Positions 4,260 to 63,910 of a stretch of 64,000 bases of DNA are shown piece after piece. The position numbers were made by a program, and so were the translations under genes. The notes beneath the pieces are model-generated. The model saw nothing but the letters and a program-made list of their open reading frames with translations, was not told the origin of the DNA and made no database searches. The stretch comes from an uncultured Gammaproteobacteria bacterium (GTDB lineage: Bacteria; Patescibacteriota; Microgenomatia; Levybacterales; UBA12049). Numbering within the stretch: position 1 is the stretch's first letter; each line of letters opens with the position of its first letter. The stretch spans positions 13,203 through 77,202 of the forward strand of contig CAYOZJ010000005.1 of assembly GCA_964408485.1 (NCBI GenBank), given 5' to 3'.

Positions 4260-4288
4260 TTGACAAAGAGTTTAATGGTTGCTATACT
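4260..4288 (+). promoter_or_regulatory. Sigma70-like promoter TTGACA-N17-TATACT
   Basis: TTGACA 4260-4265, 17-nt spacer, TATACT 4283-4288, 9 nt upstream of ATG at 4298. Confidence 0.5.
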
Positions 4289-4297
4289 TTACGTAAT

Positions 4298-30516: not shown

Positions 30517-30575
30517 GTCATTCCTACGAAGGCAGGAATCTAGTTTCTGGATCCCGGATCAAGTCCGGGATGACA
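30517..30575. repeat. B-family-like hairpin element between argS and the MBL gene (overlaps the last 5 codons of the MBL gene)
   Basis: gtcattcctacgaaggcaggaatc ... gatcccggatcaagtccgggatgac. Confidence 0.5.
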
Positions 30576-44664: not shown

Positions 44665-44722
44665 TAAACCAATGACTAATGATAAATACTACCAATCAAT
44701 CTCTTAATAAGAGAATAATCCA

Positions 44723-45493: not shown

Positions 45494-45499
45494 TGCAAA

Positions 45500-46474: not shown

Positions 46475-46590
46475 TTTCTAAGTATTCTAATTTCTAATTG
46501 ACCTAAACAAACCCCAAGCTCAAATTTCTAATGTCTTGTCATTGGTGCTTTTTTAGAAATTAGGGTAATTAGGTAAATTAGGTTAATTTA
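46472..46590. repeat. D-family AT-rich intergenic repeat (copy 2) between convergent genes
   Basis: ttctaatttctaattgacctaaacaaa...ggtgcttttttagaaattagggtaattaggtaaattaggttaattt. Confidence 0.7.
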
Positions 46591-47478
46591 GTAGCCTACT
46601 CCCTTCATCCAGTGATGATGAAGCTTACGCTTTTTGAAAAGAAAATCAAATGCATGATTTATTTTAATACTCGGAACAGGTATGCCTGGAAGAGCTGTCG
46701 GACGGTACTTCCGTAAAAGAATAATAATAAGGATAATGACTATCAGGACAAGCAGTAACCAAACCCACCACGGAATTTCAAAAAGGTTAAAACCAGGAAG
46801 TTGCCCAAGACCAGAGGGAGTTGGGCCAGCCGTGGGCTTAAAACCGCTTATTCCTTGAATAAGAATCTTCTTAAGTTGTTGCTCAGATGGCTTACCTGCC
46901 AACACTGAGTCTGCGAAAAGCTCGTTATTTCCTGCTTTTTGAATCTTAATATTACACGCGTAATATCCACCTATATCTGCAATTACCGAACATCCCGTAT
47001 TCCCATTAAGATGAACTGTGATTCTCGCCCCAGGCATACCGTACCCAAAAGCTAATGCATCATCGCCAATTTGCACATCTGTGCGCTGCACTCCAAGCGT
47101 TGGTGGCAAAAATATACCTGTTTTGGTAATTACGCCATTGATCGGCGTTACGCTTACGCATGCCTCAGATTGTCCAAGTTTCTTGTAATCAACTGCATCA
47201 AAACATATCGTACTTGTTGCTTTTGGTACTGTCACATTGCTAAAACTAAAGTTACCCTGCGCGTCTGCTGTGGTCGAGGTAATAACAGTATTATTAATTG
47301 TTAAGACAACTGAGGCAAAAGGAGCAATATAGCCACTAACAGAAAGCGAATATCCAGCAACAGTAACTTGAACATTTGTCTGCGCACTTTGTGTAGCTGA
47401 AGCAGCCTCTACCTTGTCATGAAAAGTGACTGTGAAAATAAATAAAAAGAGAAAAAGTGAAAATAGCCTCAACTTCAT
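46588..47478 (-). CDS. Cell-surface protein with signal peptide, Ig-like beta region and a TM helix near the C-terminus
   Basis: MKLRLFSLFLFLFIFTVTF signal; WWVWLLLVLIVIILIIILLRKYR TM helix. Confidence 0.5.
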   Translation of the reverse strand: MKLRLFSLFLFLFIFTVTFHDKVEAASATQSAQTNVQVTVAGYSLSVSGYIAPFASVVLTINNTVITSTTADAQGNFSFSNVTVPKATSTICFDAVDYKKLGQSEACVSVTPINGVITKTGIFLPPTLGVQRTDVQIGDDALAFGYGMPGARITVHLNGNTGCSVIADIGGYYACNIKIQKAGNNELFADSVLAGKPSEQQLKKILIQGISGFKPTAGPTPSGLGQLPGFNLFEIPWWVWLLLVLIVIILIIILLRKYRPTALPGIPVPSIKINHAFDFLFKKRKLHHHWMKGVGY

Positions 47479-48214
47479 AGTCTCTCTTTATTGTAGACAG
47501 TATAAAATCCAATCACAAGGGACTAGATTTGCTCAGTAAGAAAAATATCTTTGATTGCTAAACGCTTACATCTAAAAATAAAAGAGGGTGGCGCGAGTTG
47601 GGAGTCCCCCATTGAGTGCCCGCAGTGAAACGAGGACATTGAATGAGGGTGACGAGCGACAGGACCCTGAGTAAACATAATACTTTTCACAAGATACGTA
47701 CAAACAAAACAAAGAAAATAGAAAATTGGATGGAAAAAATCAAACTTCCTATTAAACCAATCCAAACAACAGACATATCATATCTGTCACTTTATCCTTC
47801 TCTCTGCTAAAAGCCATGCCTCAAACTCGTGCCTAAGAATTATACGAAAATAAATACAACAAGCATAAAAATACGAAATAAAATATAATTTTGGTTTTCA
47901 CCGGTATTTCCTGTGAAATATACTATTACAGGACTCATTATGTTTTTAGATATAATTTGATATAGATTTATATTACATATTTTATCTACTTTGTGACTGA
48001 TGTTTTACTTTTATTCGGTTTTAAAATCCTTTTTCACGTTTAAAAAATATTATTTTCACAGATTCGATTTTTTATTTTTTACTTTACTCCAGGTCATTGA
48101 CAAGCTAATGTATAATTTCTACGCTTAAATAGTAGTAGTACAGCTCTTGATAATTCGTATAATCCGTATAATCTCGAGGCTAAGGAAACAAAAAGCAAGA
48201 TTTCATACTGCCCT

Positions 48215-51200
48215 ATGGAATATTTACAAAAGTTTAGAATTTATTTACTTTCATTAACACCTGCACCGTCAGCAGTAACTGTGAAAAATTACTGCTTAGA
48301 CGTGAAGCACTTTATTTCGTGGTCAGAACAGAAAAATCACGCACCCTTCGATCCATCAAAAGTTACCCAGGATGAAATAGAAAAGTTTCGACAGGATGAG
48401 AATGGACATCTCTCTGCTCGCTCACTCGATAGGCACGTATCAAGCTTACGAAAATTCTTCCACAGCCTTAAATTACAAGGCGTATTATCAACAAGTCCAT
48501 TTGAAAATACAGTATCTACTCAATTACCAACAGATCCCTACAAGCTAAAACAATTCAAAGATTTCCTTTATGTCTATAACGCAAGTAATCTAACTATAAA
48601 AAACTACATCATTGATGTGAAGCAGTTTTTCAAATGGGCAGAGGAAAAAATTCAAGCTCAGACAGACCAGGAGTCTGAAGAAATTACCCCTCTTTCCTAC
48701 CTAAGTAATGACCTTTTAGCCACATACCGAGATGAATTATTCTCAGGAAATGTTTTCTCAGCCTCATCTATCAACCGAAAGCTCTCTTCTCTTCGCAAGT
48801 ATATTGGCTGGGCAAAGTCACAAAATTTCTTGGAAAACGAATTAGACTCCCGTAATAATCCAAACGAAGTAGCAAACATAGCTAGCGCTCACACTTCTAG
48901 CGTGCTAGAAGTGAATCAGAACAAAGCGGAAAGCGAAAAGCGTAAAGAATTAGAAACCAAAAAAGAAGCAAATGGGAAAAACCTTGACGCTTTACCCTTA
49001 ACGCTTAACGCTGGTTACTCTCCTTTTCCTCCTCTTCGTCTTGCTCAAAAGATATCAAAAGGATTCAATTATGGTTTGGACGTTGCTATTATCGCTCCTC
49101 TTGCTAAGCTCGTATTGCAAGGTACAAAAGTGCTCTGGACACTCCAAGGAAAACCTCTTTTTGTTGCAGCAAAGAAATCATTAAGGCTAGCAAGTCCTGT
49201 GAAAAATATATCTAAGTTTGCAGTACAGGCTGGAGAAGTTTCCACAGCTAACTTTTCATGGTATCAAAAAATTTGGCATCACGCACAAAACACACGACCT
49301 AACTGGTACAGAAGATATCATCAACTACCAGTCGCCCATTATTTTAACTGGGCGATACTCATGATTGTTATGACAATCATTGGTGTTGGTTTTTATAATA
49401 GCTTTATTGCAAAGCCACAGAATAGTAAACCACTTTTAGCAGCAGCCCAACCAAACAGAATTCTTTCTTTCCAGGGTAGACTTACTGATAGCAGCAATAA
49501 TCCAATCACCACTTCTTCAAATTTGCGGTTTGCTATTTATACAGACGCAACTTCAACAGGTTCTGCCCAACTATGGCAAGAATTAGACAATGTTACGCCG
49601 GATGCTAACGGCGTATTTTCTGTTTTGCTTGGAAAAAACAGTAGCATTCAACAATCGCTCTTTGCTAATAATGCGAATTTATATTTGGGTATTACTGTCG
49701 AACAGACACCCGAGCTCACTCCTCGCCAACAACTCGCAACAGTTGCCTATGCGACCAACGCAGAAACACTCCAAGGTCTACCACCTATCACCCAGTCTGG
49801 CGCGGGAACAAGCAATGTCGTCCTCGCACTAAATTCTTCTGGTAATTTATCCATTGGTGCAGCATCCACTTTTCAGACCGTTGGTGGCGCATTTACGCTT
49901 GCTGGAGATACGCTTGTCTTAAATACCAATCCCGGTACAAATGGTAACATAACCATAACCCCAGACGGCCTAGGTTTTATAGATTTGCAAAAGCCACTTG
50001 TTAATACAACACAAAACAATAACATTCCATCAGCTTCAGGCTCTGTGGAAATTGATGATACGCTTGCAATTCTTGCAACATCAGATGCTGTCCCTGCCCA
50101 AACAATTAATCAAGACGGTGCAGGTGCACTTTTCACAGCTTCAGCTGGAGGTATTAGTAAATTCACCATTGGCAATTCAGGGACAATAACTGCCAGCAAT
50201 TACAATACAGCAGGTGGCGTTTTTTATGCAGATGGTACTGGTCTTTTTCTCCAAACAACAGCAGGCGCGATTGGCCAATGTCTTACATCTAATGGATCTT
50301 CTGGTCCAAGCTGGACAGCATGTAGTGGTGGATCTGCAAACAACTTTTGGACAATTACAAATGGCGCATTGTATCCAGTGAATACAACACTTGATGTCCT
50401 CTTTGGCGGAACTGCATCAAATGGCGCTAATTTTGCCTTTATTAACAACGCACCAGGATCCGGCACACCAACAGCATCTGTTTCAGGAAATATTACGCTT
50501 AATAGCGCAGGCCTCATTCAGACAACAAATAACCAACAGCTGACTATTGGCGGCGATACGACAGGCAATATCGTCCTCAAGCCATTGAATGGTGCAGGAA
50601 CTGTTACCTTATCTGGCTACGCAACAGGAATAATTCATTCAACGTCTGGAGTTTTATCTTCAAGTGCTGTTGACTTGGCAAGCGGAGATGTAACTGGTGT
50701 GTTGCCTTTAGCAAATGGGGGTACAAATAATAGCTTGGTTGCAGATAATGGTGGCATCGTCTATTCAGACGCAACAAGACTTCAAGTTTTGGCGCATGCG
50801 GGATCTGCAGGACTTTGTCTTACCTCTGGTGGCGCAGGCGCCCCAAGCTGGGCGAGCTGTTCGGGAAGTAATTCCAACTTCTGGAATGTAAATAACGGCG
50901 TCATTTACCCAAGCAATTCAACGCTTGATTTTATTTTGGGTGGAGACGGCGCAACAACATCTGCAAAATTTGCAGTCCTGAATATGACAGGTTCTGGAAC
51001 ACCAGTTGCATCAGTAAGTAGTGGTTTGAATGGAAATGCTACATATATCGCAGCAGATGGAACACTTCAGACAACAAGAAACCATGCGCTAACAATTGGC
51101 GGAAGCACAACTGGAAACATAATCCTTAGCCCGCTTAACAGCTTGGGATATGTCCAACTAAATGGAACAGTCAATTCTAATCTTGTCCCAACAATCACTG

Positions 51201-54200
51201 ACACCTATAACTTGGGCTCACCAAGTAATGAATGGAATAACTTATATGTTAAAAATCTTGTTGTCTCAGGAAGCATCGCAGGATTTTGGCAAAGAAATTC
51301 AGGTGTCCTCTCCCCTACCAATATTACAGACGACTTAGCGATTGGCGGTATAGCAACAAATACTGCAAGATTCCAAGTCTTTGCAAATACAGGCAATGCA
51401 ACAACTGCAGGTAATTTAACTTTCACCGGAAATGGTAGCCAAATTCAGACAACAAGTAACCAAACTCTCACTCTTGGAGGAAATACCACAGGAGGTATCG
51501 TGTTATCTCCAAGTAATGGAACAGGCACAATTGGTCTCAATGCAAGCAACATAACAACAAATCAAACAACTGTAAATCTTCTCAACACCACAGCAACAAC
51601 GGTTAATTTTGCAGGCGCTGCAACAACAGTAAGTATTGGCAATTCAGGAGGATCTACAACAATCAATGGCGGTTTAGTGGTAAATGCAGACACACAGCTT
51701 CTTGGCAATACAACGTTAGGCGACAGCTCATCTGACACAATTGCCTTTATTGGCCAAGTAAATACCAATATTCTCCCTTCCACAACAAATGCTCGTGATC
51801 TTGGCTCCCTTGCTCAACAATGGAATAATATTTATGGAAATCACATTTTTAGCAATGGTGTTGAATTGTCCCAATTCTTCCAGAGAAATTTTGGCGTTAT
51901 ATCCCCATTGAATATCACTGACGACTTAGCTGTCGGTGGAACAGCAACAAATACTGCTAAATTTCAGGTATCTGGCTTAACAGGCAATGCAACAACTACG
52001 GGTACACTTACGTTTGATGGGACGGGTAACCTTATCCAGACAACTAAATTCCAGGATTTAACAATTGGTGGGACAACAACTGGAAATATTACACTCAGTC
52101 CAAAAAATGGAACAGGCACAGTTACCATTGCAGGGCTGTCATCGGGTGTAGTACATAGTACCGGGGGCATCCTCTCTTCAAGTAACGTAAACTTAACCAG
52201 TGAAGTAACCGGTATCCTTCCTATTGCCAATGGAGGCACAAATACTAATACAATAGGTTCGGCAGGAAGCATTGCCTACTCAACCGGTACTGCATATGCA
52301 TTTAATTCAGTGGGATCCACAGGTCAATGTCTTGTATCTAATGGATCTGGAGCCCCTAACTGGACATCATGTACTACTGCAGCAGGCGCAACAAATTACT
52401 GGACACTCGATGGCGGCAATGGAATTTTGTATCCTGTTAATACAACACTTGATGTGTTGTTTGGTGGAACATCGAGTAACTCTGCTAATTTTGCATTTCT
52501 TAATAATGCACCAGGATCTGGTACACCAACTGCATCCATTTCCGGTAACTTAACTCTCAATAGCGCTGGAAACATTCAAACAACAAATAACCAACCACTG
52601 ACCATTGGCGGCAATACAACGGGAAGTGTTACCTTAGCGCCAAGCAATGGAAATGGAACGCTCAATCTTAATGCTACAAATATTAATACAAATCAGACAA
52701 GTGTAAATCTTCTCAACACAACAGCAACAACAATTAATTTTGGAGGTGCAGCAACAAGTATTAATATCGGTAATGCAGGAGGCTCAGCAACATTTAATGG
52801 CGGGCTTGTCGTCAATGCAGATACAACGCTTAACGGCAACACAACCTTAGGAGATAGCTCGAGTGATCGAGTCACTTTTAACGGACTAGTGAATTCAAAT
52901 ATCATTCCATCTGCAAATAATACCTATGACTTAGGCTCAATCACGAATGCATGGAATAATATTTTTGTTAACAACATTATCTCAAGTGGCAACATATCAG
53001 GACTTTGGCAAAGATTTTTGGGAGTCCTATCCCCTGTTAATATTGGCGATGACTTAGCAATCGGTGGGACAGCAACAGGTACAGCCAAATTTCAAGTGTT
53101 TGGTAACACTGGCAATGCAACAACTGCAGGTAATCTCACATTTAATGGCAATGGAGTAATTCAAGCAACAAATAATCAACCTCTTACGATTGGCGGAGAT
53201 ACAACAGGCAGTATAACAGTAGCGCCTAATAATGGTACTGGCACAGTAAATCTTAACGCTACAAATATTAATACCAATCAAACAAGTGTAAACCTACTTA
53301 ATTCTACTACTACAGCAATTAATTTTGGAGGTGCAGCAACTGCGCTTTCAATCGGTGCAGGATCTGGAACAACAACAGTTAATAATGGTCTCACAGTTAC
53401 CGGAACAAGCACCTTAAATGGCAATGTTGTTTTGGGAGCAAATAGTACCAAAACAATTACCGCAAACGGACAGTTTAATTCCTCTCTTATTCCATCAGTA
53501 ACCGATACTTACGATTTAGGATCAATTGCACTTGAGTGGAATAATCTGTATGTTAAAAATATTATTGCAGGGGGCAATGTATCTGGATTTTGGCAGAGAT
53601 TCTTGGGAGTTATTTCTCCAACAAATATCACGGACGACTTAGCAATTGGTGGAACAGCAACAAATACAGCAAGGTTCCAGGTTTTTGGAAATACAGGCAA
53701 TGCAACAACTACAGGTACACTTACTTTTGATGGGACCGGTAGCCTTATCCAGACAACACGAAACCAAGGCCTAACAATTGGAGGAGATACAACAGGAAAT
53801 ATTACGATAAAACCACTCAATGGAACAGGAACAGTCACTATTGCAGGACTTGGGACAGGAGTAGTACATAGCACAAATGGACTTCTTTCTAGTAGTGCAG
53901 TGAATTTAGCAAATGGCTCAGCAGATATAACTGGAACTCTTTCAACAAGTAATGGCGGTACGGGACAAAATTCATACGCTGGCGGCGATCTTCTGTATTA
54001 TGCATCCGGAACATCTTTATCCAAACTCACTATTGGCGGCGCAAATACAATCCTCACATCAACCGGCACAGCTCCACAATGGTCAAGTAGCCTCACACTT
54101 GGAGGCAACTTAAATGTGAATGGTAACACAACGCTTGGAGACACCGCTGGGGATACGATAACCTTTAATGGTCAAGTTAATTCCAATATTATCCCAACAA

Positions 54201-57200
54201 GCAGTAATGCATTTGATTTAGGATCCATAACCAATGCATGGAACAATTTGTACGTTAACAACATTATCTCAAGCGGTAATATCTCAGGATTCTGGCAAAG
54301 AAATTCTGGCGCACTTTCCCCTGCTAATATTACCGACGATCTTTTAGCAGGCGGTACAGCAACAAGTACAGCAAAGTTTGCAGTCTTAAATATGGCAGGA
54401 GGTACACCTGTTGCTTCTATTTCTTCAGGACTTTCTGGAACAGGACTATATCTCTCAGCAGATGGAAGTATCCAAACAGTAAGAAATCAAGGTCTAACAC
54501 TTGGTGGGGCAACAACGGGAAATATCATTCTCTCTCCACTTGGCGGAACAGGAACAGTAACAATAAATGGCCTTGGAACTGGCATTGTCCACAGTACAAC
54601 GGGGGTACTCTCAAGTAGTGCAGTAAATTTAGCAAATACAGATGTCACAGGAATTTTGCCTTTGGCAAATGGAGGAACAAATGCAAACCTTACCGCAGAT
54701 AATGGCGGCATAGTCTACTCAGATGCTTCTAAGTTGCAGATATTGGCTCATGCAGGCACAGTTGGACAATGTTTGGTAAGCGGCGGATCAGGAGCACCAA
54801 GCTGGACAAATTGTAGTAGTGCCTCGCAAAATTGGTGGAATGTAAATAATGGCGCACTCTTTCCTATCAATTCAACGCTTGATCTTCTCTTAGGTGGAGA
54901 CGGCGCAACAACATCTGCAAAATTTGCAGTACTCAATATGACTGGGAGTGGCACACCAACTGCATCAGTAAGTAGTGGTTTGAATGGAAATGCAACATAC
55001 ATTACAGCAGATGGAACACTTCAAACAACACGCAACCAAGGACTGACGATTGGAGGCGCAACAACAGGAAATATTACGCTTTCTCCTCTTAATGGTGGAA
55101 GTGTAAGTACAATCAATCTTAATGCCAGGACACTTGCAACCAACCAAACGACGGTCGATCTGCTTAACACAACGGCAACAAGTATTAACTTTGGAGGAGC
55201 AGCAACCTCTCTTTCTATTGGAAATTCAGGTGGAACAACAACAGTCAATGGTGCCTTAGCCGTAAATGGCAATACCAACTTAAATGGCAATACAACAATT
55301 GGCGACAACGCATCAGATACCATTGCATTTACTGCACATGTTAACTCCAGCATCCTTCCCAGCACTGATACAACCTATGACTTAGGAAGTGGTTCGCTTA
55401 GGTGGAATAATGTCTATGCTGGCAATCTCATTCTTCCTGTTACAGGCGGAATCGATGGCTATTGGACACTTGCCTCAAGTGTTCTATCACCAACAAATAC
55501 GTGGAATGATTTAGTAATAGGCGGAACGTCAACAAGCAGCGCTAAATTCCAAGTATTTTCCAATACAGGTAATGCTACAACGTCTGGTAATTTGACATTC
55601 AATGGCAATGGAACAATTCAGACAACGAATAATCAGCCACTTACTCTTGGTGGCAACAGTACAGGTAATATCATTCTTTCCCCAAATAACGCAGCAGGAT
55701 CGGTAACAGTTAATGGATTTATAAGCAGTAATCTTATTCCATCAAGAAATGATACGTATGACTTAGGCTCTGGGACAAATGAATGGAATAACTTGTATGT
55801 TAAAAACATTATCTCGACCGGTAATTTAGCAGGATTCTGGCAGAGAAATTCTGGCACACTCGCTCCCCTTAATATTAGTGATGATTTGCTCGCCGGTGGA
55901 ACAGCAACAAGTACAGCGCGATTTGCTGTGCTTAATATGTCTGGCCCTGGTACACCAACAGCATCTGTTAGCTCAGGACTTTCTGGCACTGGTATGTATT
56001 TTGATGCCAATGGAACAATCCAAACAGTCAGAAACCAAGGCTTGACTCTTGGTGGGGCGACAACGGGAAATATCACACTTTCACCTCTTAATGGAAGTGG
56101 AATAGTAACAGTGAATGGGACAAGTTTGCTGAGCTCTGGAACATCATTTAACTTGCTTACTGGCGCAACAACAATTTCCATCGGCGCAGGGTCCGGAACA
56201 ACAACAGTTAATAACGGCCTAACTGTTACCGGAACAAGCACATTAAATGGCAATGTCGTATTAGGCGCGAGCAGTAGTCAAACAATCGCAGCAAATGGTC
56301 AATTTACAACAAGTCTTATCCCAAATACTGACGCGTCATTTGATCTTGGATCTAGTCCATCCAATAGATGGAGAAACCTTTTCCTGTCTGGTAATTCAAC
56401 AGTTGGTGGCAATGAAACAGTTACCGGAACAGCAACAGTTGGTAATTTAGTTTTGGCATCAACTGCTAATTATGGCGGGTTCTGGCAGAGATTTAGCGGT
56501 GCACTCTCCCCTGTTTATTCAACAGATGATATTCTTGTAGGGTCAAATGCAACAACATCTGCAAAGTTTGCACTTTTAAACATCGCAAATGGCACACCTG
56601 TTGCTTCTATTTCATCAGGTTTTTCTGGAACAGGCATGTACTTTGATGCAACTGGGACTATTCAAACAGTGAGAAATGCAGTACTTACTCTTGGCGGCAA
56701 TACAACAGGTGGAGTAGTATTTGGCAGTAATGTTGCATCAAATATTCTGCCAAAGTTTACTAATACCTATGATTTGGGATCACTTGCTCTTCAGTGGAAT
56801 AATGGATATTTCAACAATATTTATGCAAATGGTCAGCCCATAACACAACTATTCCAAAGAAATTCTGGCGCACTTTCCCCTCTCAATATTACTGATGACT
56901 TACTCTTGGGTGGCACAGCAACAAGTACTGCTAGATTTGCATTTATTAATAACACTGGGACAGGCGCACCAACTGCTTCTATCTCAAGTAACTTCTCACT
57001 TGTTGTCCCAACAGGCGCAGCACCAGCAGAAACAATTAATGTCTTAAATGGTGGAAGTCTTAATATTCAACACTCAGCAGGTGGAGACACAGGACTCACA
57101 AGTTCACTCTTTATAGACAAAGCAGGACAAGTTGGTGTTGGGACAGCAAGTGTATCTCATCAGCTTGAAATTGCCGGAAGTTCAACGCAATTTAATTCAA

Positions 57201-60200
57201 CAGTCTATCTGAATCCTTCAACATTTGGATCTTCAAAACGAGCTGGTCTTAATCTTGATAATTGGCTCTTAGCACAAGATATTGGAGGAACAGGTGTAAA
57301 AGATTTTGTTATCTATGACACAGCAAGTGGCCAATCAAAATTCTACATAACTGCCAATGCAAATGGTGGAGCAGGCTTTGGTTTGCCTGTACTTGGCGCT
57401 GTCAATAGCCTTGGTAACTCAGAATTTGTCGTAAATCAACCAAATACCGCTGGAGACATACTAAGTGCATCAACATCTGGCACAACAAAATTTGTGATTA
57501 CCAATGATGGGACCGTTGGTATTGCAAATAATGTAACCGATGCAACTATTCTTAATAAATCTGCTCTTGATGTACGAAAAGATTCCTTTGGTAATGCACT
57601 AACACTCTTCAAACAGCTTTCCTCTGATACCAATGCAGATATTATTACTGCATCTAATTCTGCAGGACTTACGGAATACAGACTCACTAATGCAGGCGTT
57701 GAACAGGCAAGACAATTCCAGGATTTGGATAGCACTGCTTACTTCCTTGATCCTGCAGCATCTGGCAATTCTCTTATCATTGCAGGGACAGCTGGTATTG
57801 GAACAACCTCTCCCCTTGCATCCAGTGGCTTAGATATAGAGAAAAATGCATTAGGCAATGCAGCAGAAGTGGTTAATCAATTAGGTAATGGCGATATCTT
57901 TACTGCTTCTGCATCTGGAGTTAAGAAGTTTACTATTCAAAATGATGGAACACTGGTTGCTGGAAAATACACAACAAACAAAGGCATACTATATATTAAT
58001 GATACAGCTGGAACAATTGCCGAGACAGGACAAGGCGCAGCAAATACTGTACTTCATGGAAATGGCACATCTGCTCCATCATTTAGCGCTGTTGACTTGG
58101 CAGCAGATGTTACAGGCATTCTTCCACTCGCAAATGGAGGAACAAATAATAATATTACTGCAGATAATGGTGGTATAGTCTACTCAGATGCAACCAAACT
58201 CCGACTATTAGCTTCTACGGTAACTGCAGGCCAATGCCTTTTGTCCGGATCAAGCAGCGCGCCAACATGGGGAAGTTGCGGAAGTGGAACAGGCGTAAAT
58301 TGGTGGACAATGAGCAACGGCGCACTCTTCCCTCTTAATAACACCCTTGATTTGTTTGTTGGCGGCAGCGCTACAACATCTGCAAAATTTGCAGTGCTCA
58401 ATATGACTGGGAGTGGCACACCAACAGCATCTGTAAGCTCAGGACTTTCTGGCAATGCAACATATATTACCGCAGACGGATCTTTACAGACAGCACGAGC
58501 AGCAACATTGACCTTGGGCGGAACCACCACCGGCAATATTGTATTAAAACCACAAAATGGTGGAGGCTCTATAACGATCGATGGCCCAACACTTGATACA
58601 ACAAATACAACCTTTAATGCATTTACCACTGCTTCAACGCTTGGTATTGGCGCTGCATCCGGGACAACAACAATAAATAATGGCCTTACTGTAGCTGGCA
58701 ATATTAGTGATAATGGTGGAACATTCACAACAAATCAGACAACATTCAACTTGCTCAATACAACAGCAACAACAATTAATTTTGGTGGCGCTGCAACTGT
58801 TGCACTCAATGTTGGTGCAGCAACAACACCAATTAATCTAAAAGGTAACGTTACACTTGGTACTGATGCAACAAACACTATTACATCAAATGGTTTATAT
58901 GCATCTGATCTTATTCCAACAGGCAATGGATCAATCAACTTGGGATCAGCAACACATTACTATGGCACAGTCTATGCAAATAATTTTATTGCGCCAGTAA
59001 GTGGCGGTGTATCCGGCTTCTGGCAATTAACAAATAGTGTTATCTCCCCTGTTAATGCATGGAATGATTTGGCAATCGGTGGCAATGCAACGGGAAGCGC
59101 AACACCATGGCAAGTATTTGCAACAACTGTTGGCGTTAATACTGCAGGCACAGCAACATCTTCTGGAAATCTTTCATTCAGAGGAACAAATACCAATATT
59201 AACTTGCTTAATGGTAGTATCCTAAGTGTCAAAACATCCATTGGTGGAGACGCAGGACTCGGTACAGTCCTTACCATAGCCAACAATGGCAACCTAACTG
59301 CAACAGGAACATTAAATCTTAACAGTGGAATTCTGGCAACAAATCAAACAACAGCAAGTCTCTTTGATGCAACAGCAACAAGTATTAATATTGGCTCCGG
59401 TGCAACATCAGGTATCGGTATTGGCAATGCAAGTGGAATCAATACAATTAGGGGAAATGTTGTCTTGAATAGCACATCAGGAAATACCCTAACGATTAAT
59501 GGCCGTGTAAATACAGATATCATTCCTGATGTAACTAACTCTCATGATTTGGGCTCTAACGACCTTAAATGGAGAAACATTTTCGCAGGAAGCGCAGTAA
59601 CAACAAATAATCTTTATCTTCCTGTTAGTGGCGGCACTGATGGCTACTGGTCCTTAGCCAGTAATGTGCTATCTCCAACAAATAATTGGAATGACTTGGC
59701 AATAGGAGGAACAGCAACAAGTACTGCTAAATTCCAAGTATTTAGTAACACAGGGAATGCAACAACAGCTGGAAATCTTACTTTTAACGGCAACGGAGTA
59801 ATTCAGACAACCAATAATTTACCATTTACTCTCGGTGGAAATTCTACAGGAACAATTACCCTTGCTCCATCTAATGGTGGCGCAGGCAGTATTCTTAACC
59901 TCAACGCAGCAAATATTAATACTAATCAAACAAGTGTTAATTTACTTAACACAACAGCAACAACAATTAATTTAGGTAACGCCGCAACAACATTAAATCT
60001 TGCTAATAATGCCCTCACAACAACAATTGGTATCGGCGGATCTGGTGGAACAACAACAGTCAATAACGCTCTAACGGTAACTGGTGCAACTACACTAAAT
60101 GGTACGATCAACTTAGGCAATGCAACAAGTGATGACATAACAGCAACAGGATTTTTTGCAAGCTCACTCATTCCAAAAGCAGCAGATACCTATAACCTTG

Positions 60201-63200
60201 GCTCTGTGGCCAATGAATGGGACACACTGTATATCAGACAAATAGTTACTCCATCATCTGGAGGCTTGGCTGGCTTCTGGCAATTATCTAACAAGGGTGT
60301 TTTGGCTCCTGCGAATATTGGTAACGATGTCTTAATTGGCGGCGGCATTGCAACACCATCTGCAGCAACAGATACTGGATTCCAGATTTTTGGAAGTGGA
60401 CCAAACCAAGCAACAGCAACAACATCAGGCAATCTGGCTTTCTATGGCTCAGCACCCACAATCAGCACACAAAGAATGGTTCCATTGACTATTGGCAATG
60501 CAACAACCGGCCCGATTCAACTGTCTCCAAAAGGAACAACAGGCCTGTATGTTGCAGGAACAGGTAATGTTGGGATTGGCACAACTACACCTGGATTTAA
60601 TTTAGAAATTGCTGGTATAACAACACAGTATGGAGCAGCACTGCACATTGATCCGTCAACCTTTGGCTCATCGAAACGAGCTCAACTTGAATTAGACAAC
60701 TGGCAAGTCGCTCAAGACCTCAGTGGAAATGGAACAAAAGACTTTTTCCTTTACGACACTGTTAACGCAGCTACTCGCTTTTACATAAACACCATAGGAG
60801 GTACTGGCATTGGTGCAACAAGTAATCTCGGTAATGCAACACTTATCGTTAATCAAAATAACACGTCTGGTCTTGGGGACATTATCACAGCCTCAGCATC
60901 AGGCACAACACAATTCAAGCTCACCAATGCAGGTATTGTTCAAGCAAAGTCATTCCAGGATTTAGATGATACAAGATACTTTATTGATCCTGCATCATCA
61001 GGTACAGCACTTAGCTTAAACGGTACAGCATCTATGGCGGCTGATCTTACCTTCACTGGTGCTAGTACAACGCATAATATTTATACCTTTAATAATGGCA
61101 ATCTTGATTTCCAAATGAGTCCTGGAGGTGCTATCCCAACGACAGGGGTTGTCCACTCTTTATATCTGCAGGCAGCAACTGGGAATGTAGGTATTGCTAC
61201 AACTTCACCATCAGACACATTAGATATTGCAGGAAATGCCACTGCATCTGGAAATCTTTCTTTCAGAGGAAATGCAACAACACATAATTTAAATCTTCTT
61301 AATAATGGTCAGCTTAATATTAATACGTCTGTTGGAGGCATAGCGACACTTAATACCGCCCTTACTATTGCGGCGGGAAATAATACAACTGCTGGTAATA
61401 TAGGTATAAATAATGTAAGTCCATCGCGCCAGCTTGATGCTTCGGGCTCGTGGGGTGGGAATGTAACAAGCACGCAAGATACAACAGCCTCCAATCATAC
61501 TGATACAGTATCATCGAGTTCTCTTGTATACTTTGTTAATTATACGCTCTCCAGCCCTGGAGGATCTTTCACAACCACCTTTAATATTACTGGTCTACCT
61601 CAAGTTGAAGGCTCATTTTTCATGGTCCGGGTAAGAGCAAATACGAATAATACACAGACCGCAACAGCCTCACTCCAAGCAAATGGGCAAAGCTTAGGAA
61701 GTGCCACAGGAAGCAATGGAGCTAGTAACAAAGATGGCCTTTATGCATATATAGGATCGCAGTGGAATCTTATTGCTAGCAATGACAGCAATAATCAGAA
61801 TGTTGACTTGGCTGAACTTTTCCCATATGGTGCAAAACGCCCAATCCCTGGAGAACTTTTAGCGAGTAATGTACAAAATCATCAAGTACAGTTAGACAGA
61901 ACAGGAAAAGAATATGATCAGAAAGCAATGGGAATTGTCACAACAAATCCAAATATTCTCTTTGGCAAAGATTCAAGTGAAGCAGGCATTCAAAATGATA
62001 ATACATTCCCAATTGATGGAAAAATAGGCTTAGCTCTTGCAGGACGTGTACCAACAATTGTCACCAATCTTGATGGACCTATCGACCAGGGAGATTCTAT
62101 TACCACTTCACCACTTGCAGGCGTTGGCATGAAACCCAACAAAGCAACGCAAACTGTTGGAAAAACACTTGATTCGTTTAATCCTTTAGATGGGAGCACG
62201 GTATGTACATCAGTCGCAAGCTACGACAGCATTCCTTGGCCAAATGACAATGGGACAAATGCTGCTCATCCTTGCTTTAGTGTTCCTGTTGCATCATTCG
62301 ATCAAGCAACGCAACAAATCTTAAATAGTGAATATCATCTTAATCAAACAGACTCAGTATATGTTGGTAAAGTTATGGTTTTGGTAGGCAATGGCTTTGT
62401 GGATCCAGACGTATACCTTACAACAACTGGTGACATACACTTTACCGATGCATCAGCATCTGCTAACTTCACCGTACCACACTACTATAGTGTTGCAGAT
62501 GCAGTAGGACTTCCTATTACCAGAATGGGAAGATTTCTAGAACTTGCAGTGGGTAATCTACGAGCAGGTAGTATCCAAACCCAACAACTCTTTACTAATT
62601 CTCTTGCTATCGCAACAAGCAATGTGACTATTGCCGGAGTAAGTCTCCATGATTATATACAAAATATTGTTACAGAAGTGTTGCAAAACAATCAACAAAC
62701 AGTGAATAGTCCAATAGCCTCAGTTGATCAACTTCATGCTGGTGTTATATCACCTCTTGGCACAGACAATAGTATTGCACTAAGCATAAATAACTCTAGG
62801 TTAGAAGTGAAAAATGGCGCATCTGGGTCTGCTGTGGCTACAATAGACAATCAAGGAAATGCGTCATTTAGTGGCACATTAAATTCACAAAATCTTGCAG
62901 TAAATGCAGATGCAACAATCTCTGGAACACTTCATGCAGGAAAAATCGTGGCTGATGATATCGTAGGACTCAGAGCAGCTGTGGGTACATTATCTGCTCA
63001 AAACATAACGAATGTAACCAACATTTACTTCGCTACACCAAGCGCAGCACCTACTGGGGTAAATTTTGCTACAGGACCTAGTGGTAATAGCAGTACGAAT
63101 TCTGGAGTGCTAACCCCGATTCAATCGGGGCTAAATCCATACATCGGTTATACCAATTTAGCCTCATATTCTGGCTTCTTGGCATATGTACCAAATCTTT

Positions 63201-63910
63201 CTGCAGACACTGCAATGTTTAATCAAGGCCTTGTGTCCTTGGGTACAACAAGTCTTGGAGACACAACAGTAACAGGACAACTCTCTATTGGAACAAATCT
63301 GATCCTCGCGGATAGTAGTGTTAATGTCCTTGGGTCATCATTTGAAATCCAGTCACTGAGACAAGGTGGAGTAAATTTTGAAGGAGGACTTATTGCAATC
63401 GATACTGACGGCAATTTAATGGTTAACGGCAATGCAGTATTTAGTAAAAACTTGGCAGCAAATGTTATCTCGCCACTAAGCAATGATCGCAACCTAACTA
63501 TTAAATTGGGAGAGAATTCTCAAGACTCAGCCTTAGCAACCTCAAATCTTGCAGTACAAAATGCATCTGGATCTGGAGTATTTAGTATTGATCAATTGGG
63601 CAATATCTTAGCAAGCGGTGCAGCAACTATCGGTAAACTTAACCTGACTGCTGCACAGCCTGCTTTGGCAGTAAGTAATACCGAACAAATTGCAACTGGA
63701 TCAGCTGGAACAGCTGCTATTAAGGCAAATCATACAGAAATAACAATCGATAACAAACTAGTAACTAATAGATCACTTATCTATATTACTCCTGTTGGTG
63801 CAAGCTCAGTACCATACCTACTGCGACAGGTAACAAATACTTCATTTACTGTGGGGATCCCTACATCACAATTTACCGATACCACATTTAACTGGCTCAT
63901 CGTTAATTAA
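48215..63910 (+). CDS. Giant (5231 aa) membrane-anchored surface protein: two N-terminal integrase core-binding (SAM-like) domains, one TM helix, long Thr/Asn/Gly-rich beta-rich repeat region
   Basis: Single uninterrupted 15.7-kb ORF. Residues ~5-100 and ~110-205 each match the Phage_int_SAM-like pattern (FRIYLLSLTPAPSAVTVKNYCLDVKHFISW...SARSLDRHVSSLRKFFHSL; FKDFLYVYNASNLTIKNYIIDVKQFFKW...SINRKLSSLRKYIGW). TM helix VAHYFNWAILMIVMTIIGVGFY. Many ~250-aa repeats carrying NQPLTIGGNTTGNI, NINTNQTSVNLLNTTATTINFGGAAT and ISGFWQRNSGVLSPTNITDDLAIGGTATNTAKFQVF. Carries in-frame repeat elements C3 (48925-49012) and F3 (63109-63135). Confidence 0.9.
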   Translation: MEYLQKFRIYLLSLTPAPSAVTVKNYCLDVKHFISWSEQKNHAPFDPSKVTQDEIEKFRQDENGHLSARSLDRHVSSLRKFFHSLKLQGVLSTSPFENTVSTQLPTDPYKLKQFKDFLYVYNASNLTIKNYIIDVKQFFKWAEEKIQAQTDQESEEITPLSYLSNDLLATYRDELFSGNVFSASSINRKLSSLRKYIGWAKSQNFLENELDSRNNPNEVANIASAHTSSVLEVNQNKAESEKRKELETKKEANGKNLDALPLTLNAGYSPFPPLRLAQKISKGFNYGLDVAIIAPLAKLVLQGTKVLWTLQGKPLFVAAKKSLRLASPVKNISKFAVQAGEVSTANFSWYQKIWHHAQNTRPNWYRRYHQLPVAHYFNWAILMIVMTIIGVGFYNSFIAKPQNSKPLLAAAQPNRILSFQGRLTDSSNNPITTSSNLRFAIYTDATSTGSAQLWQELDNVTPDANGVFSVLLGKNSSIQQSLFANNANLYLGITVEQTPELTPRQQLATVAYATNAETLQGLPPITQSGAGTSNVVLALNSSGNLSIGAASTFQTVGGAFTLAGDTLVLNTNPGTNGNITITPDGLGFIDLQKPLVNTTQNNNIPSASGSVEIDDTLAILATSDAVPAQTINQDGAGALFTASAGGISKFTIGNSGTITASNYNTAGGVFYADGTGLFLQTTAGAIGQCLTSNGSSGPSWTACSGGSANNFWTITNGALYPVNTTLDVLFGGTASNGANFAFINNAPGSGTPTASVSGNITLNSAGLIQTTNNQQLTIGGDTTGNIVLKPLNGAGTVTLSGYATGIIHSTSGVLSSSAVDLASGDVTGVLPLANGGTNNSLVADNGGIVYSDATRLQVLAHAGSAGLCLTSGGAGAPSWASCSGSNSNFWNVNNGVIYPSNSTLDFILGGDGATTSAKFAVLNMTGSGTPVASVSSGLNGNATYIAADGTLQTTRNHALTIGGSTTGNIILSPLNSLGYVQLNGTVNSNLVPTITDTYNLGSPSNEWNNLYVKNLVVSGSIAGFWQRNSGVLSPTNITDDLAIGGIATNTARFQVFANTGNATTAGNLTFTGNGSQIQTTSNQTLTLGGNTTGGIVLSPSNGTGTIGLNASNITTNQTTVNLLNTTATTVNFAGAATTVSIGNSGGSTTINGGLVVNADTQLLGNTTLGDSSSDTIAFIGQVNTNILPSTTNARDLGSLAQQWNNIYGNHIFSNGVELSQFFQRNFGVISPLNITDDLAVGGTATNTAKFQVSGLTGNATTTGTLTFDGTGNLIQTTKFQDLTIGGTTTGNITLSPKNGTGTVTIAGLSSGVVHSTGGILSSSNVNLTSEVTGILPIANGGTNTNTIGSAGSIAYSTGTAYAFNSVGSTGQCLVSNGSGAPNWTSCTTAAGATNYWTLDGGNGILYPVNTTLDVLFGGTSSNSANFAFLNNAPGSGTPTASISGNLTLNSAGNIQTTNNQPLTIGGNTTGSVTLAPSNGNGTLNLNATNINTNQTSVNLLNTTATTINFGGAATSINIGNAGGSATFNGGLVVNADTTLNGNTTLGDSSSDRVTFNGLVNSNIIPSANNTYDLGSITNAWNNIFVNNIISSGNISGLWQRFLGVLSPVNIGDDLAIGGTATGTAKFQVFGNTGNATTAGNLTFNGNGVIQATNNQPLTIGGDTTGSITVAPNNGTGTVNLNATNINTNQTSVNLLNSTTTAINFGGAATALSIGAGSGTTTVNNGLTVTGTSTLNGNVVLGANSTKTITANGQFNSSLIPSVTDTYDLGSIALEWNNLYVKNIIAGGNVSGFWQRFLGVISPTNITDDLAIGGTATNTARFQVFGNTGNATTTGTLTFDGTGSLIQTTRNQGLTIGGDTTGNITIKPLNGTGTVTIAGLGTGVVHSTNGLLSSSAVNLANGSADITGTLSTSNGGTGQNSYAGGDLLYYASGTSLSKLTIGGANTILTSTGTAPQWSSSLTLGGNLNVNGNTTLGDTAGDTITFNGQVNSNIIPTSSNAFDLGSITNAWNNLYVNNIISSGNISGFWQRNSGALSPANITDDLLAGGTATSTAKFAVLNMAGGTPVASISSGLSGTGLYLSADGSIQTVRNQGLTLGGATTGNIILSPLGGTGTVTINGLGTGIVHSTTGVLSSSAVNLANTDVTGILPLANGGTNANLTADNGGIVYSDASKLQILAHAGTVGQCLVSGGSGAPSWTNCSSASQNWWNVNNGALFPINSTLDLLLGGDGATTSAKFAVLNMTGSGTPTASVSSGLNGNATYITADGTLQTTRNQGLTIGGATTGNITLSPLNGGSVSTINLNARTLATNQTTVDLLNTTATSINFGGAATSLSIGNSGGTTTVNGALAVNGNTNLNGNTTIGDNASDTIAFTAHVNSSILPSTDTTYDLGSGSLRWNNVYAGNLILPVTGGIDGYWTLASSVLSPTNTWNDLVIGGTSTSSAKFQVFSNTGNATTSGNLTFNGNGTIQTTNNQPLTLGGNSTGNIILSPNNAAGSVTVNGFISSNLIPSRNDTYDLGSGTNEWNNLYVKNIISTGNLAGFWQRNSGTLAPLNISDDLLAGGTATSTARFAVLNMSGPGTPTASVSSGLSGTGMYFDANGTIQTVRNQGLTLGGATTGNITLSPLNGSGIVTVNGTSLLSSGTSFNLLTGATTISIGAGSGTTTVNNGLTVTGTSTLNGNVVLGASSSQTIAANGQFTTSLIPNTDASFDLGSSPSNRWRNLFLSGNSTVGGNETVTGTATVGNLVLASTANYGGFWQRFSGALSPVYSTDDILVGSNATTSAKFALLNIANGTPVASISSGFSGTGMYFDATGTIQTVRNAVLTLGGNTTGGVVFGSNVASNILPKFTNTYDLGSLALQWNNGYFNNIYANGQPITQLFQRNSGALSPLNITDDLLLGGTATSTARFAFINNTGTGAPTASISSNFSLVVPTGAAPAETINVLNGGSLNIQHSAGGDTGLTSSLFIDKAGQVGVGTASVSHQLEIAGSSTQFNSTVYLNPSTFGSSKRAGLNLDNWLLAQDIGGTGVKDFVIYDTASGQSKFYITANANGGAGFGLPVLGAVNSLGNSEFVVNQPNTAGDILSASTSGTTKFVITNDGTVGIANNVTDATILNKSALDVRKDSFGNALTLFKQLSSDTNADIITASNSAGLTEYRLTNAGVEQARQFQDLDSTAYFLDPAASGNSLIIAGTAGIGTTSPLASSGLDIEKNALGNAAEVVNQLGNGDIFTASASGVKKFTIQNDGTLVAGKYTTNKGILYINDTAGTIAETGQGAANTVLHGNGTSAPSFSAVDLAADVTGILPLANGGTNNNITADNGGIVYSDATKLRLLASTVTAGQCLLSGSSSAPTWGSCGSGTGVNWWTMSNGALFPLNNTLDLFVGGSATTSAKFAVLNMTGSGTPTASVSSGLSGNATYITADGSLQTARAATLTLGGTTTGNIVLKPQNGGGSITIDGPTLDTTNTTFNAFTTASTLGIGAASGTTTINNGLTVAGNISDNGGTFTTNQTTFNLLNTTATTINFGGAATVALNVGAATTPINLKGNVTLGTDATNTITSNGLYASDLIPTGNGSINLGSATHYYGTVYANNFIAPVSGGVSGFWQLTNSVISPVNAWNDLAIGGNATGSATPWQVFATTVGVNTAGTATSSGNLSFRGTNTNINLLNGSILSVKTSIGGDAGLGTVLTIANNGNLTATGTLNLNSGILATNQTTASLFDATATSINIGSGATSGIGIGNASGINTIRGNVVLNSTSGNTLTINGRVNTDIIPDVTNSHDLGSNDLKWRNIFAGSAVTTNNLYLPVSGGTDGYWSLASNVLSPTNNWNDLAIGGTATSTAKFQVFSNTGNATTAGNLTFNGNGVIQTTNNLPFTLGGNSTGTITLAPSNGGAGSILNLNAANINTNQTSVNLLNTTATTINLGNAATTLNLANNALTTTIGIGGSGGTTTVNNALTVTGATTLNGTINLGNATSDDITATGFFASSLIPKAADTYNLGSVANEWDTLYIRQIVTPSSGGLAGFWQLSNKGVLAPANIGNDVLIGGGIATPSAATDTGFQIFGSGPNQATATTSGNLAFYGSAPTISTQRMVPLTIGNATTGPIQLSPKGTTGLYVAGTGNVGIGTTTPGFNLEIAGITTQYGAALHIDPSTFGSSKRAQLELDNWQVAQDLSGNGTKDFFLYDTVNAATRFYINTIGGTGIGATSNLGNATLIVNQNNTSGLGDIITASASGTTQFKLTNAGIVQAKSFQDLDDTRYFIDPASSGTALSLNGTASMAADLTFTGASTTHNIYTFNNGNLDFQMSPGGAIPTTGVVHSLYLQAATGNVGIATTSPSDTLDIAGNATASGNLSFRGNATTHNLNLLNNGQLNINTSVGGIATLNTALTIAAGNNTTAGNIGINNVSPSRQLDASGSWGGNVTSTQDTTASNHTDTVSSSSLVYFVNYTLSSPGGSFTTTFNITGLPQVEGSFFMVRVRANTNNTQTATASLQANGQSLGSATGSNGASNKDGLYAYIGSQWNLIASNDSNNQNVDLAELFPYGAKRPIPGELLASNVQNHQVQLDRTGKEYDQKAMGIVTTNPNILFGKDSSEAGIQNDNTFPIDGKIGLALAGRVPTIVTNLDGPIDQGDSITTSPLAGVGMKPNKATQTVGKTLDSFNPLDGSTVCTSVASYDSIPWPNDNGTNAAHPCFSVPVASFDQATQQILNSEYHLNQTDSVYVGKVMVLVGNGFVDPDVYLTTTGDIHFTDASASANFTVPHYYSVADAVGLPITRMGRFLELAVGNLRAGSIQTQQLFTNSLAIATSNVTIAGVSLHDYIQNIVTEVLQNNQQTVNSPIASVDQLHAGVISPLGTDNSIALSINNSRLEVKNGASGSAVATIDNQGNASFSGTLNSQNLAVNADATISGTLHAGKIVADDIVGLRAAVGTLSAQNITNVTNIYFATPSAAPTGVNFATGPSGNSSTNSGVLTPIQSGLNPYIGYTNLASYSGFLAYVPNLSADTAMFNQGLVSLGTTSLGDTTVTGQLSIGTNLILADSSVNVLGSSFEIQSLRQGGVNFEGGLIAIDTDGNLMVNGNAVFSKNLAANVISPLSNDRNLTIKLGENSQDSALATSNLAVQNASGSGVFSIDQLGNILASGAATIGKLNLTAAQPALAVSNTEQIATGSAGTAAIKANHTEITIDNKLVTNRSLIYITPVGASSVPYLLRQVTNTSFTVGIPTSQFTDTTFNWLIVN

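Follow-up and report, generated by a model that had tools for sequence, protein, structure and literature searches.

A Levybacterial family of giant predicted surface-fibre proteins with paired recombinase-type core-binding domains and a gene-specific tandem repeat upstream

The locus

We describe a 15.7-kb gene for a giant putative fibre protein in a 64,000-nt stretch of DNA from an uncultured bacterium (contig CAYOZJ010000005.1, positions 13,203 to 77,202; hereafter the window), together with a short tandem repeat element that lies just upstream of it. The protein carries at its N-terminus two core-binding (CB) domains of the kind found in Xer-type tyrosine recombinases, followed by a single transmembrane helix and a very long, repeat-rich ectodomain. 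The gene and its element, with coordinates that count from the first nucleotide of the window, comprise the following features.

48215..63910, + strand: fibre gene, complete with stop codon; ATG start, 5231 amino acids (aa), bitopic product, both termini aligning with homologues
48215..48499, + strand: CB1, core-binding domain (Phage_int_SAM_1), aa 1-95; PF02899 at 35.3 bits over aa 12-89, four helices within aa 2-87
48536..48832, + strand: CB2, core-binding domain, aa 108-206; PF02899 at 40.4 bits over aa 111-203, four helices within aa 111-202
48833..48997, + strand: variable, charged, disordered linker, aa 207-261; poor alignment, varying length, predicted local distance difference test (pLDDT) <50
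48998..49327, + strand: conserved cytoplasmic juxtamembrane module, aa 262-371; invariant or near-invariant columns, AlphaFold2 helices
49328..49411, + strand: single transmembrane helix, predicted signal anchor with N-terminus inside, aa 372-399; hydropathy peak, AlphaFold2 helix, positive-inside bias
49412..50194, + strand: conserved ectodomain base, aa 400-660; LAAPxAPPRILSFQGRLTD..., TPELTPRQQLATVAYATNAETLQGLPP..., covered by 59-77 of 80 homologues
50195..61354, + strand: expanded stalk of degenerate repeats, aa 661-4380; seen in tile self-comparison and motif spacing, covered by 3-30 of 80 homologues
61355..63907, + strand: unique C-terminal region, aa 4381-5231, supported by 47 complete homologues; the family-wide tip spans ~aa 4530-5231 (nt 61802-63907)
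48149-48183, + strand: gene-specific cis element, candidate operator for the CB pair, GATAATTC-GTATAATCC-GTATAATCT-CGAGGCTAA; found by alignment of upstream regions
48149-55, 48157-63 and 48166-72, + strand: the 9-bp-spaced units of that element, GATAATT, GTATAAT and GTATAAT
48173-83, + strand: conserved flank of the element, CTCGAGGCTAA

An intact gene with a non-catalytic core-binding head

The open reading frame (ORF) reads as one intact gene. Its first methionine aligns with the N-terminus of 21 homologues, and its C-terminal part is matched by 47 complete, independently assembled homologues, in alignments that start at aa 4393-5006 and end at the final residue. DNA repeats within the ORF are only 60-83% identical, none is near-identical, and the sole tandem array is 57 nt long; assembly collapse is therefore not indicated. 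The first-pass annotation, which had drawn attention to this ORF, allowed for a chimeric assembly, for a failed CB profile match and for a cleaved signal peptide. We found no sign of a chimera and no signal peptide, and the profile match is clear.

When aa 1-110 and aa 101-220 were scanned separately against PF02899 (gathering cut-off 22.3 bits), both segments scored well above threshold, and jointly they reach 66.3 bits (E 3e-18); PF13495 also matches the region. The two domains share 33% identity (E 3e-13) and so represent a true internal duplication. The NCBIfam models for XerC (66 bits) and XerD (60 bits) align only over model positions ~7-94 of ~295, with cut-offs of ~330. The catalytic domain PF00589 was searched for with Pfam in all segments of the protein and gave no match even at E≤1. 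The protein thus lacks the catalytic domain and with it the RHR-Y active site; it is not a tyrosine recombinase, and recombination by it is impossible. Tandem CB domains with no integrase domain behind them were what the first-pass annotation had proposed, and we agree in all but one term: it spoke of a recombinase arm-binding fold, and the fold is that of the core-binding domain.

Structure prediction points the same way. In an AlphaFold2 model of the head built on a 22-sequence alignment (31-55% identity to the window protein), each CB domain is a four-helix bundle; pLDDT exceeds 90 in CB1, and in CB2 it lies at 62-94 (in blocks of 10) and is lowest in a loop at aa ~150-165. The top 27 Foldseek matches in the PDB are all recombinase CB domains; among them are XerA (5hxy), structurally the closest, then 3nrw, a stand-alone domain (TMt 0.78, rmsd 2.5 A), the lambda Int CB domain 2oxo (TMt 0.70) and XerD (1a0p). 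The same motifs are invariant in both copies across the 22 sequences, above all T-x-K-N-Y-x-x-D, and a Ser/Arg-rich helix reads S-x-x-R-x-x-S-x-L-R-x-F in CB1 and N-R-K-L-S-S-x-R-x-Y in CB2. The length of the segment between CB1 and CB2 is also conserved. Judged by these alignments, the CB pair is under strong purifying selection.

We note that the best PDB sequence match of the family profile, in the CB region, is chain 14 of 9i5v (E 7.9e-8). This 401-aa chain was deposited as 'Ribosome-associated translation inhibitor RaiA'; its N-terminus is CB-like, and the label or chain assignment seems odd.

Membrane topology

Across all 5231 aa there is a lone Kyte-Doolittle peak above 1.5, at aa ~373-398, where AlphaFold2 also places a helix (aa 372-399), and no N-terminal hydrophobic segment or signal peptide was found in the fibre protein. 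The N-terminal 375 aa form a folded, helical region with homology to a cytoplasmic DNA-binding domain. The segment aa 221-380 is net positive (22 Lys and Arg, 9 Asp and Glu). A positive-inside bias runs through the family: in the 20 aa on either side of the helix in 124 family proteins, Lys and Arg average 3.70 on the N-terminal side versus 1.97 on the C-terminal side, with an excess on the N-terminal side in 100 proteins, equal numbers in 19 and the reverse in five. Twelve of the 13 cysteines lie C-terminal to the helix as six close pairs, five at 14-residue spacing (all in the stalk) and one at 23, and look like the disulphide loops of an extracytoplasmic protein. Given the missing signal peptide, the folded helical N-terminus, the positive-inside bias and the ectodomain cysteine pairs, we predict an N-in/C-out topology. 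The single helix and the cytoplasmic N-terminus had both been anticipated from the sequence, and both predictions are supported.

The juxtamembrane module contains the motifs YSxFPPxRLAQK, NISKxLYAPLxIST and RYTRPNWYKxYHSY and an amphipathic helix at aa 272-310. This helix is conserved and moderately hydrophobic, too little so to count as a second transmembrane helix in the window protein, and on the model it probably lies on the inner face of the membrane.

Base, stalk and tip

The ectodomain (aa 411-5231) has the Thr/Asn/Gly-rich, repetitive character first ascribed to it (Thr 14.2%, Gly 13.1%, Asn 11.3%, Ser 10.0%), with degenerate repeats over aa ~660-4380. Tile searches of the protein against itself resolve the stalk into ~14-20 diverged copies (30-89% identity) of a supermodule of ~190-200 aa, shorter than the ~250 aa given before, and a second module type occupies aa ~2940-3300 and ~4080-4320. 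Over its last ~500 aa the window protein shares 51% identity with the C-terminus of P0061, a relative from outside the family. In P0061 and in P0060, P0066 and P0073, the tip-related module follows a Peptidase_S74 domain, and a weaker relative (P0076; 47% identity over 29% of the query) carries Peptidase_G2. These S74 and G2 carriers are non-family relatives that share the last ~500 aa; the window protein itself gave no S74 or G2 match at E≤0.1.

Searches of the ectodomain returned little else. Pfam, NCBIfam and PHROGs gave nothing on aa 421-5231, or just one match of 38 bits, to a functionally uncharacterised PHROG; 1510 aa of base and stalk, used as a query against PDB sequences, matched nothing; and when the tip and two stalk modules were compared by tblastn with 50,697 phage records, the outcome was nothing or only motif matches of ~40-55 aa, for which reason 'phage tail fibre' stays an analogy. 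A profile of the C-terminal region weakly matched mosaic adhesive trimer (MAT) fibres of Bdellovibrio in the PDB, Bd2133 (8ond, E 1.6e-4, 23.5 bits) and 8ol4 (E 0.012), through repeats of the type GNVGIGTTxPxxxLxVxG. An AlphaFold2 monomer model of the C-terminal 702 aa (19-sequence alignment) has a pLDDT of 46.7 and is confident only for a beta-sandwich in the last ~70 aa. By analogy, then, a trimeric tail-fibre-like adhesin receives modest support. Of the beta-helix or fibre flavour noticed at first, what stands is the weak match to the Bdellovibrio MAT fibres and the S74-bearing relatives, which suggest it and do not establish it.

In MAT fibres the stalk is beta-helical, the cell-proximal domain invariant and the tip exchangeable, and an S74 chaperone may or may not be present (PMC10769870). 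The rise of Bd2133, 370 aa per 142-150 A or ~0.39 A/residue (PMC10769870), would by extrapolation make a fibre of 4830 residues ~0.19 um long, as against ~0.04 um for short orthologues.

A large Levybacterial family

A search with aa 1-420 returned 56 proteins, all from metagenome-assembled genomes (MAGs) of Patescibacteria/Microgenomates; almost every one of them breaks off at a contig end, and 'site-specific integrase, partial' is a frequent annotation. Scanning one genome per GTDB species returned 133 relatives and 80 loci, nearly all from Levybacteria; there, complete genes encode 1346-3710 aa, and the others continue past the locus end after >3700 aa. With aa 262-650 as query, phmmer found 369 clusters at E≤1e-30 among 1.84 billion cluster representatives, with lengths up to 6048 aa; at 50% identity the family thus amounts to 369 clusters or more, and Levybacteria MAGs supply nearly all of them. 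In these clusters the match nearly always begins at residue ~235-280 of the hit, which marks the CB pair and linker as an obligatory part of the protein.

Members have in common the 2xCB head, the juxtamembrane module, the transmembrane helix, the base and a ~700-aa tip, in total lengths of 1346-6048 aa. The window protein has every family-defining feature, including both juxtamembrane motifs and the upstream tandem GTATAAT element. Among the 80 homologues, aa 1 to ~650 are covered by 59-80 and aa ~700-4500 by just 3-30. Since head, base and tip are family-wide and few homologues cover the stalk, the length of 5231 aa is a lineage-specific stalk expansion; the minimal orthologue has ~1350-1500 aa. 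An origin in the Candidate Phyla Radiation (CPR), as the first-pass annotation supposed, is borne out by this distribution, whereas the architecture, presented there as an oddity of one genome, turns out to be the norm for a large family in which the length alone is lineage-specific.

Gene order is conserved in most of the 80 loci: histidine kinase, ComEC, ComEA, LeuRS, (DUF2000), polytopic membrane protein, secreted ~256-aa protein, WxLIP_PGBD-like anchored protein, fibre gene. A Big_6 membrane protein on the opposite strand often also precedes the fibre gene, and homologues of the window genes occur in 44-66 of the 80 loci. The fibre gene is a stable core component of Levybacterial genomes, at ~1 copy per genome. 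We found no published description of a 2xCB-transmembrane-fibre family in the searchable literature on giant CPR proteins, on Levybacteria surface proteins or on Phage_int_SAM combined with transmembrane segments.

One MAG, CAYWEP01, holds two family paralogues (L036 and L067), and upstream of each lies a separate tandem GTATAAT element. Many MAG records that carry the gene and its synteny (L002, L008, L010-L013 and others) are titled 'uncultured Gammaproteobacteria bacterium' (binchicken/SRP co-assemblies), and other carriers are titled Eisenbacteria, Methylomirabilota or Sulfotelmatobacter; such titles are probably placeholders or wrong taxonomy labels.

A gene-specific tandem element

When the 736-nt intergenic region upstream of the fibre gene was aligned with those of relatives, conserved blocks stood out amid diverged sequence, the tandem element among them. 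Its search pattern, RTATAAY-NN-RTATAAH, lies no more than 600 nt upstream of the gene, on the same strand, in 70 of 76 loci; 82 of the 86 occurrences in 1.23 Mb of locus DNA lie upstream of family genes, and the 64-kb window holds one exact copy of the element. Information content is ~2 bits/position over two units, and the 9-bp register is fixed. Of 129 family genes for which enough sequence upstream was available, two units precede 95 and three precede 28, and all 123 of these encode two CB domains. Conversely, a motif-first scan of metagenome contigs yielded 80 loci, 72 of them with usable DNA downstream; in 70 of these a 2xCB gene follows immediately, on the same strand as the element. Viral contigs lack the element. 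Gene and element are mutually, and almost exclusively, associated.

Candidate exceptions in CB number dissolved on inspection: apparent single-CB variants in the motif-first set all have two CB domains by the family hidden Markov model (HMM), and the CB-less P0054 and P0055 are 5'-truncated fragments. There is consequently no natural variation in CB number to set against repeat number.

The element faces forward in ~145 of 146 loci. In the remaining one, L035, a forward promoter block is followed by three perfect units in inverted orientation (GATTATACA x3); the inversion takes in the ~27-nt element alone, and no flanking inverted repeats were seen. An element that is inverted yet intact is a better fit to a double-stranded DNA site than to an RNA element or to a strand-specific -10 or pause element. 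A structured RNA leader was considered and rejected on the strength of RNAalifold, which predicts an open chain (0.0 kcal/mol) for 72 aligned element copies. Rfam searches of the whole window (gathering thresholds) and of 47450-48350 (E≤1) gave two tRNAs only, neither of them upstream of the gene.

With its neighbours each unit reads AATCCGTATAA. The dif arms of Escherichia coli are GGTGCGCATAA and ATTTAACATAA, and in Cre and Xer complexes the CB domain contacts DNA at the crossover-proximal end. The arms of the Pyrococcus abyssi XerA dif site are ATTGGATATAA and, as reverse complement, TTTAGATATAA (PMC2958812). Our AATCCGTATAA unit shares ..T..RTATAA with the P. abyssi arms, and ..T..R(T/C)ATAA is common to the units and the dif arms of both species, at the crossover-proximal end. 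The units overlap and are repeated directly, and they lack both an inverted partner and a central region, an arrangement that makes them a candidate binding site and not a recombination site.

The distance from element to ATG ranges from 27 to 555 nt, and that from the element to an upstream TTGACA from 46 to 99 nt. One or two small ORFs lie between element and fibre gene in L026, L035 (9471-9829), L037, L046, L047 and L051; their product is a hydrophobic peptide ending ...SF(V/F)(I/L)SQ.... In L008 and L024 a ~500-nt insert with a different small ORF occupies the same place. The cis element is retained upstream of these small-ORF inserts.

Other upstream features and neighbouring genes

Further features of the upstream region and of the envelope gene cluster beside it are as follows.

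48086..48125, + strand: conserved promoter-like block; ACTCCAGG at 48086-93, TTGACA at 48097-102, a 17-nt spacer and TACGCT at 48120-25
47432..48059: TTTTCAC(A/G) motif cluster in the 736-nt upstream intergenic region; + strand at 47684, 47895, 48031 and 48053, - strand at 47432 and 47457
43954-44664: polytopic membrane protein of the neighbouring envelope cluster
44723-45493: secreted 256-aa protein, whose end ...YTNTITYVASPNF recalls WxL domains
45500-46474: WxLIP_PGBD-like protein with a transmembrane anchor; 26.8 bits, just below the 27.3 cut-off
46588-47478, - strand: Big_6 membrane protein

The TACGCT of the window is TATTCT in most relatives, and a simple sigma-70 promoter scan missed the window block, in which the -10 matches at only 3/6 positions. 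ACTCTAGG has 37 forward occurrences in upstream regions versus 15 in the remaining locus DNA. In the 400 nt upstream of family genes (L001-L080), TTTTCAC(A/G) occurs 3.8 times per kb in forward and 1.5 times in reverse orientation, versus 0.2 and 0.14 elsewhere (~19-fold enrichment), and seven of the 18 copies in the window fall in 47432-48281. The motif may be a second type of operator; its reverse complement GTGAAAA loosely recalls XerH/XerS-type half-sites.

Within the AT-rich intergenic region sits a GC-rich insert of ~85 nt (47588-47672, + strand) that the closest relatives, L001 and L002, lack. Its + strand has a stable fold (-33.4 kcal/mol, z -3.0) and no match in Rfam. Similar inserts occur at L022:9877-9990 and L015:5024-5108, and the window insert and the differently placed L022 insert have GACGAGCGA in common; this may be a small mobile structured element.

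No Shine-Dalgarno sequence is visible at the start regions of 29 window genes. In several of these genes a TATAAT-like box precedes the ATG by 6-12 nt (e.g. 30559-31149, 12243-13634 and 15324-16196), which suggests that leaderless or Shine-Dalgarno-independent initiation is widespread in this genome. At the fibre gene, CATACTGCCCT precedes the ATG, and CTGCC is coding in relatives that have an MNxLP N-terminal extension.

The envelope neighbours at 43954-47478 have homologues in 30-66 of the 80 loci, and may form a surface complex related to the fibre.

Interpretation

CPR bacteria (Patescibacteria) are thought to live attached to hosts, and their attachment organelles and surface-to-genome signalling are almost unknown. 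We propose, at a probability of about 0.42, that the protein is a fibre or adhesin of the cell surface, and that its cytoplasmic CB pair binds the promoter region of the protein's own gene in the manner of ToxR. Outside the cell, the conserved base, the stalk with its lineage-variable number of repeats and the ~700-aa tip would form a long, possibly trimeric attachment fibre. Inside, the two Xer-type CB domains would serve as a membrane-tethered, non-catalytic DNA-binding head that recognises two or three 9-bp-spaced AATCCGTATAA units in the promoter or leader of the same gene. The outcome could be autoregulation with the topology of ToxR and CadC, or tethering of the gene at the place where the giant nascent chain is inserted, or both; the 15.7-kb message would then be translated and inserted while it is being transcribed, with the gene held at the membrane. 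Transmembrane signalling and anchoring, both put forward in the first-pass annotation, stay candidate functions; a DNA-binding role for the CB pair, raised earlier only in general terms, becomes more concrete through the finding of a gene-specific tandem element.

Several observations weigh against this proposal. Head and element are both nearly invariant, which precludes a covariation test of a binding that we infer. An AT-rich 11-mer can resemble Xer half-sites by chance, the inverted element comes from a single MAG, and TTTTCAC could equally be the target of the CB domains. The 9-bp centre-to-centre spacing is tight for two domains of ~90 aa, and the variable distances from the element to the ATG and to TTGACA are awkward for a strict activator geometry. 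On the fibre side, a tip model at pLDDT 46.7 and the lack of real similarity to sequenced phages leave a trimer without structural support. Finally, GTATAAT is a perfect sigma-70 -10 hexamer in a genome that often has such boxes just before the ATG, so the element could be a promoter or a sigma-dependent pause element.

That last point opens the alternative we consider a real possibility: the protein is a surface fibre, but its CB pair does not act on the tandem repeat. In that case either sigma factor would read the repeats as a promoter device, in the form of tandem -10 boxes or of sigma-dependent pausing close to the promoter of a 15.7-kb gene, or another regulator would bind there; the CB pair, for its part, would bind DNA non-specifically or elsewhere, as a tether of the nucleoid or of dif to the membrane, or act as a protein-interaction or assembly module. 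The -10 consensus and the boxes ahead of many start codons in a genome devoid of Shine-Dalgarno sequences fit this alternative, as do the nearly uniform forward orientation and the conserved TTGACA-17-TAYTCT, whose position 46-99 nt upstream may put the repeats in the initially transcribed region; the enriched TTTTCAC motif hints at further DNA-binding factors. Four features, however, are left unexplained by a plain -10: each hexamer is preceded by an invariant G and followed by an invariant C, the 9-bp register is fixed, the conserved CTCGAGGCTAA flanks the units, and the element is restricted to one gene. In the window, no -35 lies at 16-18 nt. Nor would a strand-specific -10 or pause element be expected to stay intact when inverted, as in L035, and the strong purifying selection on the CB pair of exactly this gene would be left without a reason.

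We think it improbable that the locus is a recombination-related device, in which a dead CB head recruits, competes with or guides a resident Xer-type recombinase, for instance in phase variation or in stalk expansion and contraction. The resemblance of the units to Xer half-sites, the ~five-fold variation in stalk length among orthologues and the one inverted element would suit such a device, but direct overlapping units with neither an inverted partner nor a 6-8-bp central region make no core site, no recombinase gene lies near the fibre gene in the window, and the inversion in L035 is confined to the ~27-nt element, with no inverted repeats seen beside it. The stalk repeats, moreover, are old and diverged at the DNA level and have not recently recombined. 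An artefact, be it an assembly chimera, an integrase remnant joined to a fibre gene by a frameshift or a set of collapsed repeats, is hardly credible. Assemblies do often break at giant repetitive genes, and the majority of database relatives are 'partial' and labelled as integrases, yet the plan from head to tip recurs in dozens of independently assembled complete genes and in clusters of up to 6048 aa, with head, linker, transmembrane helix and base collinear and conserved; the absence of near-identical repeats and the agreement of the C-terminus with homologues to the last residue tell against it as well.

The proposal of a fibre that binds its own promoter region can be taken further, to a reading that we regard as rather unlikely in its full form: a transmembrane coupling device, in which the dead Xer-derived CB pair, being first out of the ribosome, would bind the repeats of its own promoter in cis and so tether the gene to the membrane during fibre export. 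What the fibre undergoes outside the cell (assembly, tension or host contact) would determine promoter occupancy, and the head might be released by proteolysis. If so, a recombinase recognition module would have been domesticated as a membrane-anchored, self-specific CPR regulator.

In this family a very long surface fibre and a DNA-recognition module are directly fused, and the candidate operator of ~35 bp is precisely defined and essentially unique to the gene. Two small domains and one short DNA site make a directly testable system for membrane-tethered gene control in organisms that are yet uncultured. The family also provides an example of a recombinase CB domain reused without its enzyme, and a natural experiment on fibre length, through five-fold variation of the stalk (totals of ~1350-6050 aa). 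For annotation, hundreds of database entries named 'site-specific integrase, partial' are the N-terminal ends of fibre proteins.

Comparison with known systems

The CB domains of Xer-type recombinases (XerC, XerD and XerA; PF02899; 5hxy, 1a0p, 3nrw and 2oxo) have the same four-helix fold and signature residues, which the fibre protein contains twice. It differs from these enzymes in holding the CB domains in tandem, tethered to the membrane, in one chain that has no catalytic domain, and its candidate target consists of direct repeats, whereas Xer sites have inverted arms around a crossover region.

In layout, with the topology as predicted, the protein resembles ToxR, CadC and TcpP, which likewise place an N-terminal cytoplasmic DNA-binding-type domain before one transmembrane helix and a C-terminal extracytoplasmic part. 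ToxR binds tandem direct repeats upstream of its target promoters, and tandem direct repeats also lie upstream of the fibre gene. The fold, however, is that of a CB domain and not the OmpR/PhoB-type winged helix, only CB families having been matched; a 4800-aa repeat fibre takes the place of the small sensor domain outside; and the sole detected site is at the gene itself. The fibre protein may work like a ToxR-type regulator, and is not a member of that family because its DNA-binding fold differs.

With the Bdellovibrio MAT fibres and the S74/G2 phage tail fibres it shares a mosaic plan (invariant cell-proximal end, variable stalk, exchangeable tip) and GNVGIGTTxPxxxLxVxG repeats, a similarity that is weak and at the level of motifs; no S74 domain was detected in the window protein. 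MAT fibres are secreted and bound to the surface through their N-terminal domain (PMC10769870), whereas the fibre protein is anchored by a transmembrane helix and has a cytoplasmic head. The giant genes of Omnitrophota and other phyla likewise encode very long, repeat-rich, presumed surface attachment proteins of ultra-small bacteria. Those of Omnitrophota are described with many transmembrane segments and SecA-DEAD domains, and with no mention of integrase or recombinase domains or of Levybacteria (bioRxiv 10.1101/2023.11.21.568195); the fibre protein has one transmembrane helix and a CB pair. Judged by its sequence, it appears to combine two known kinds of protein, the bitopic DNA-binding membrane proteins and the giant fibre adhesins, and if the element is indeed its own operator, the combination would come close to a new category.

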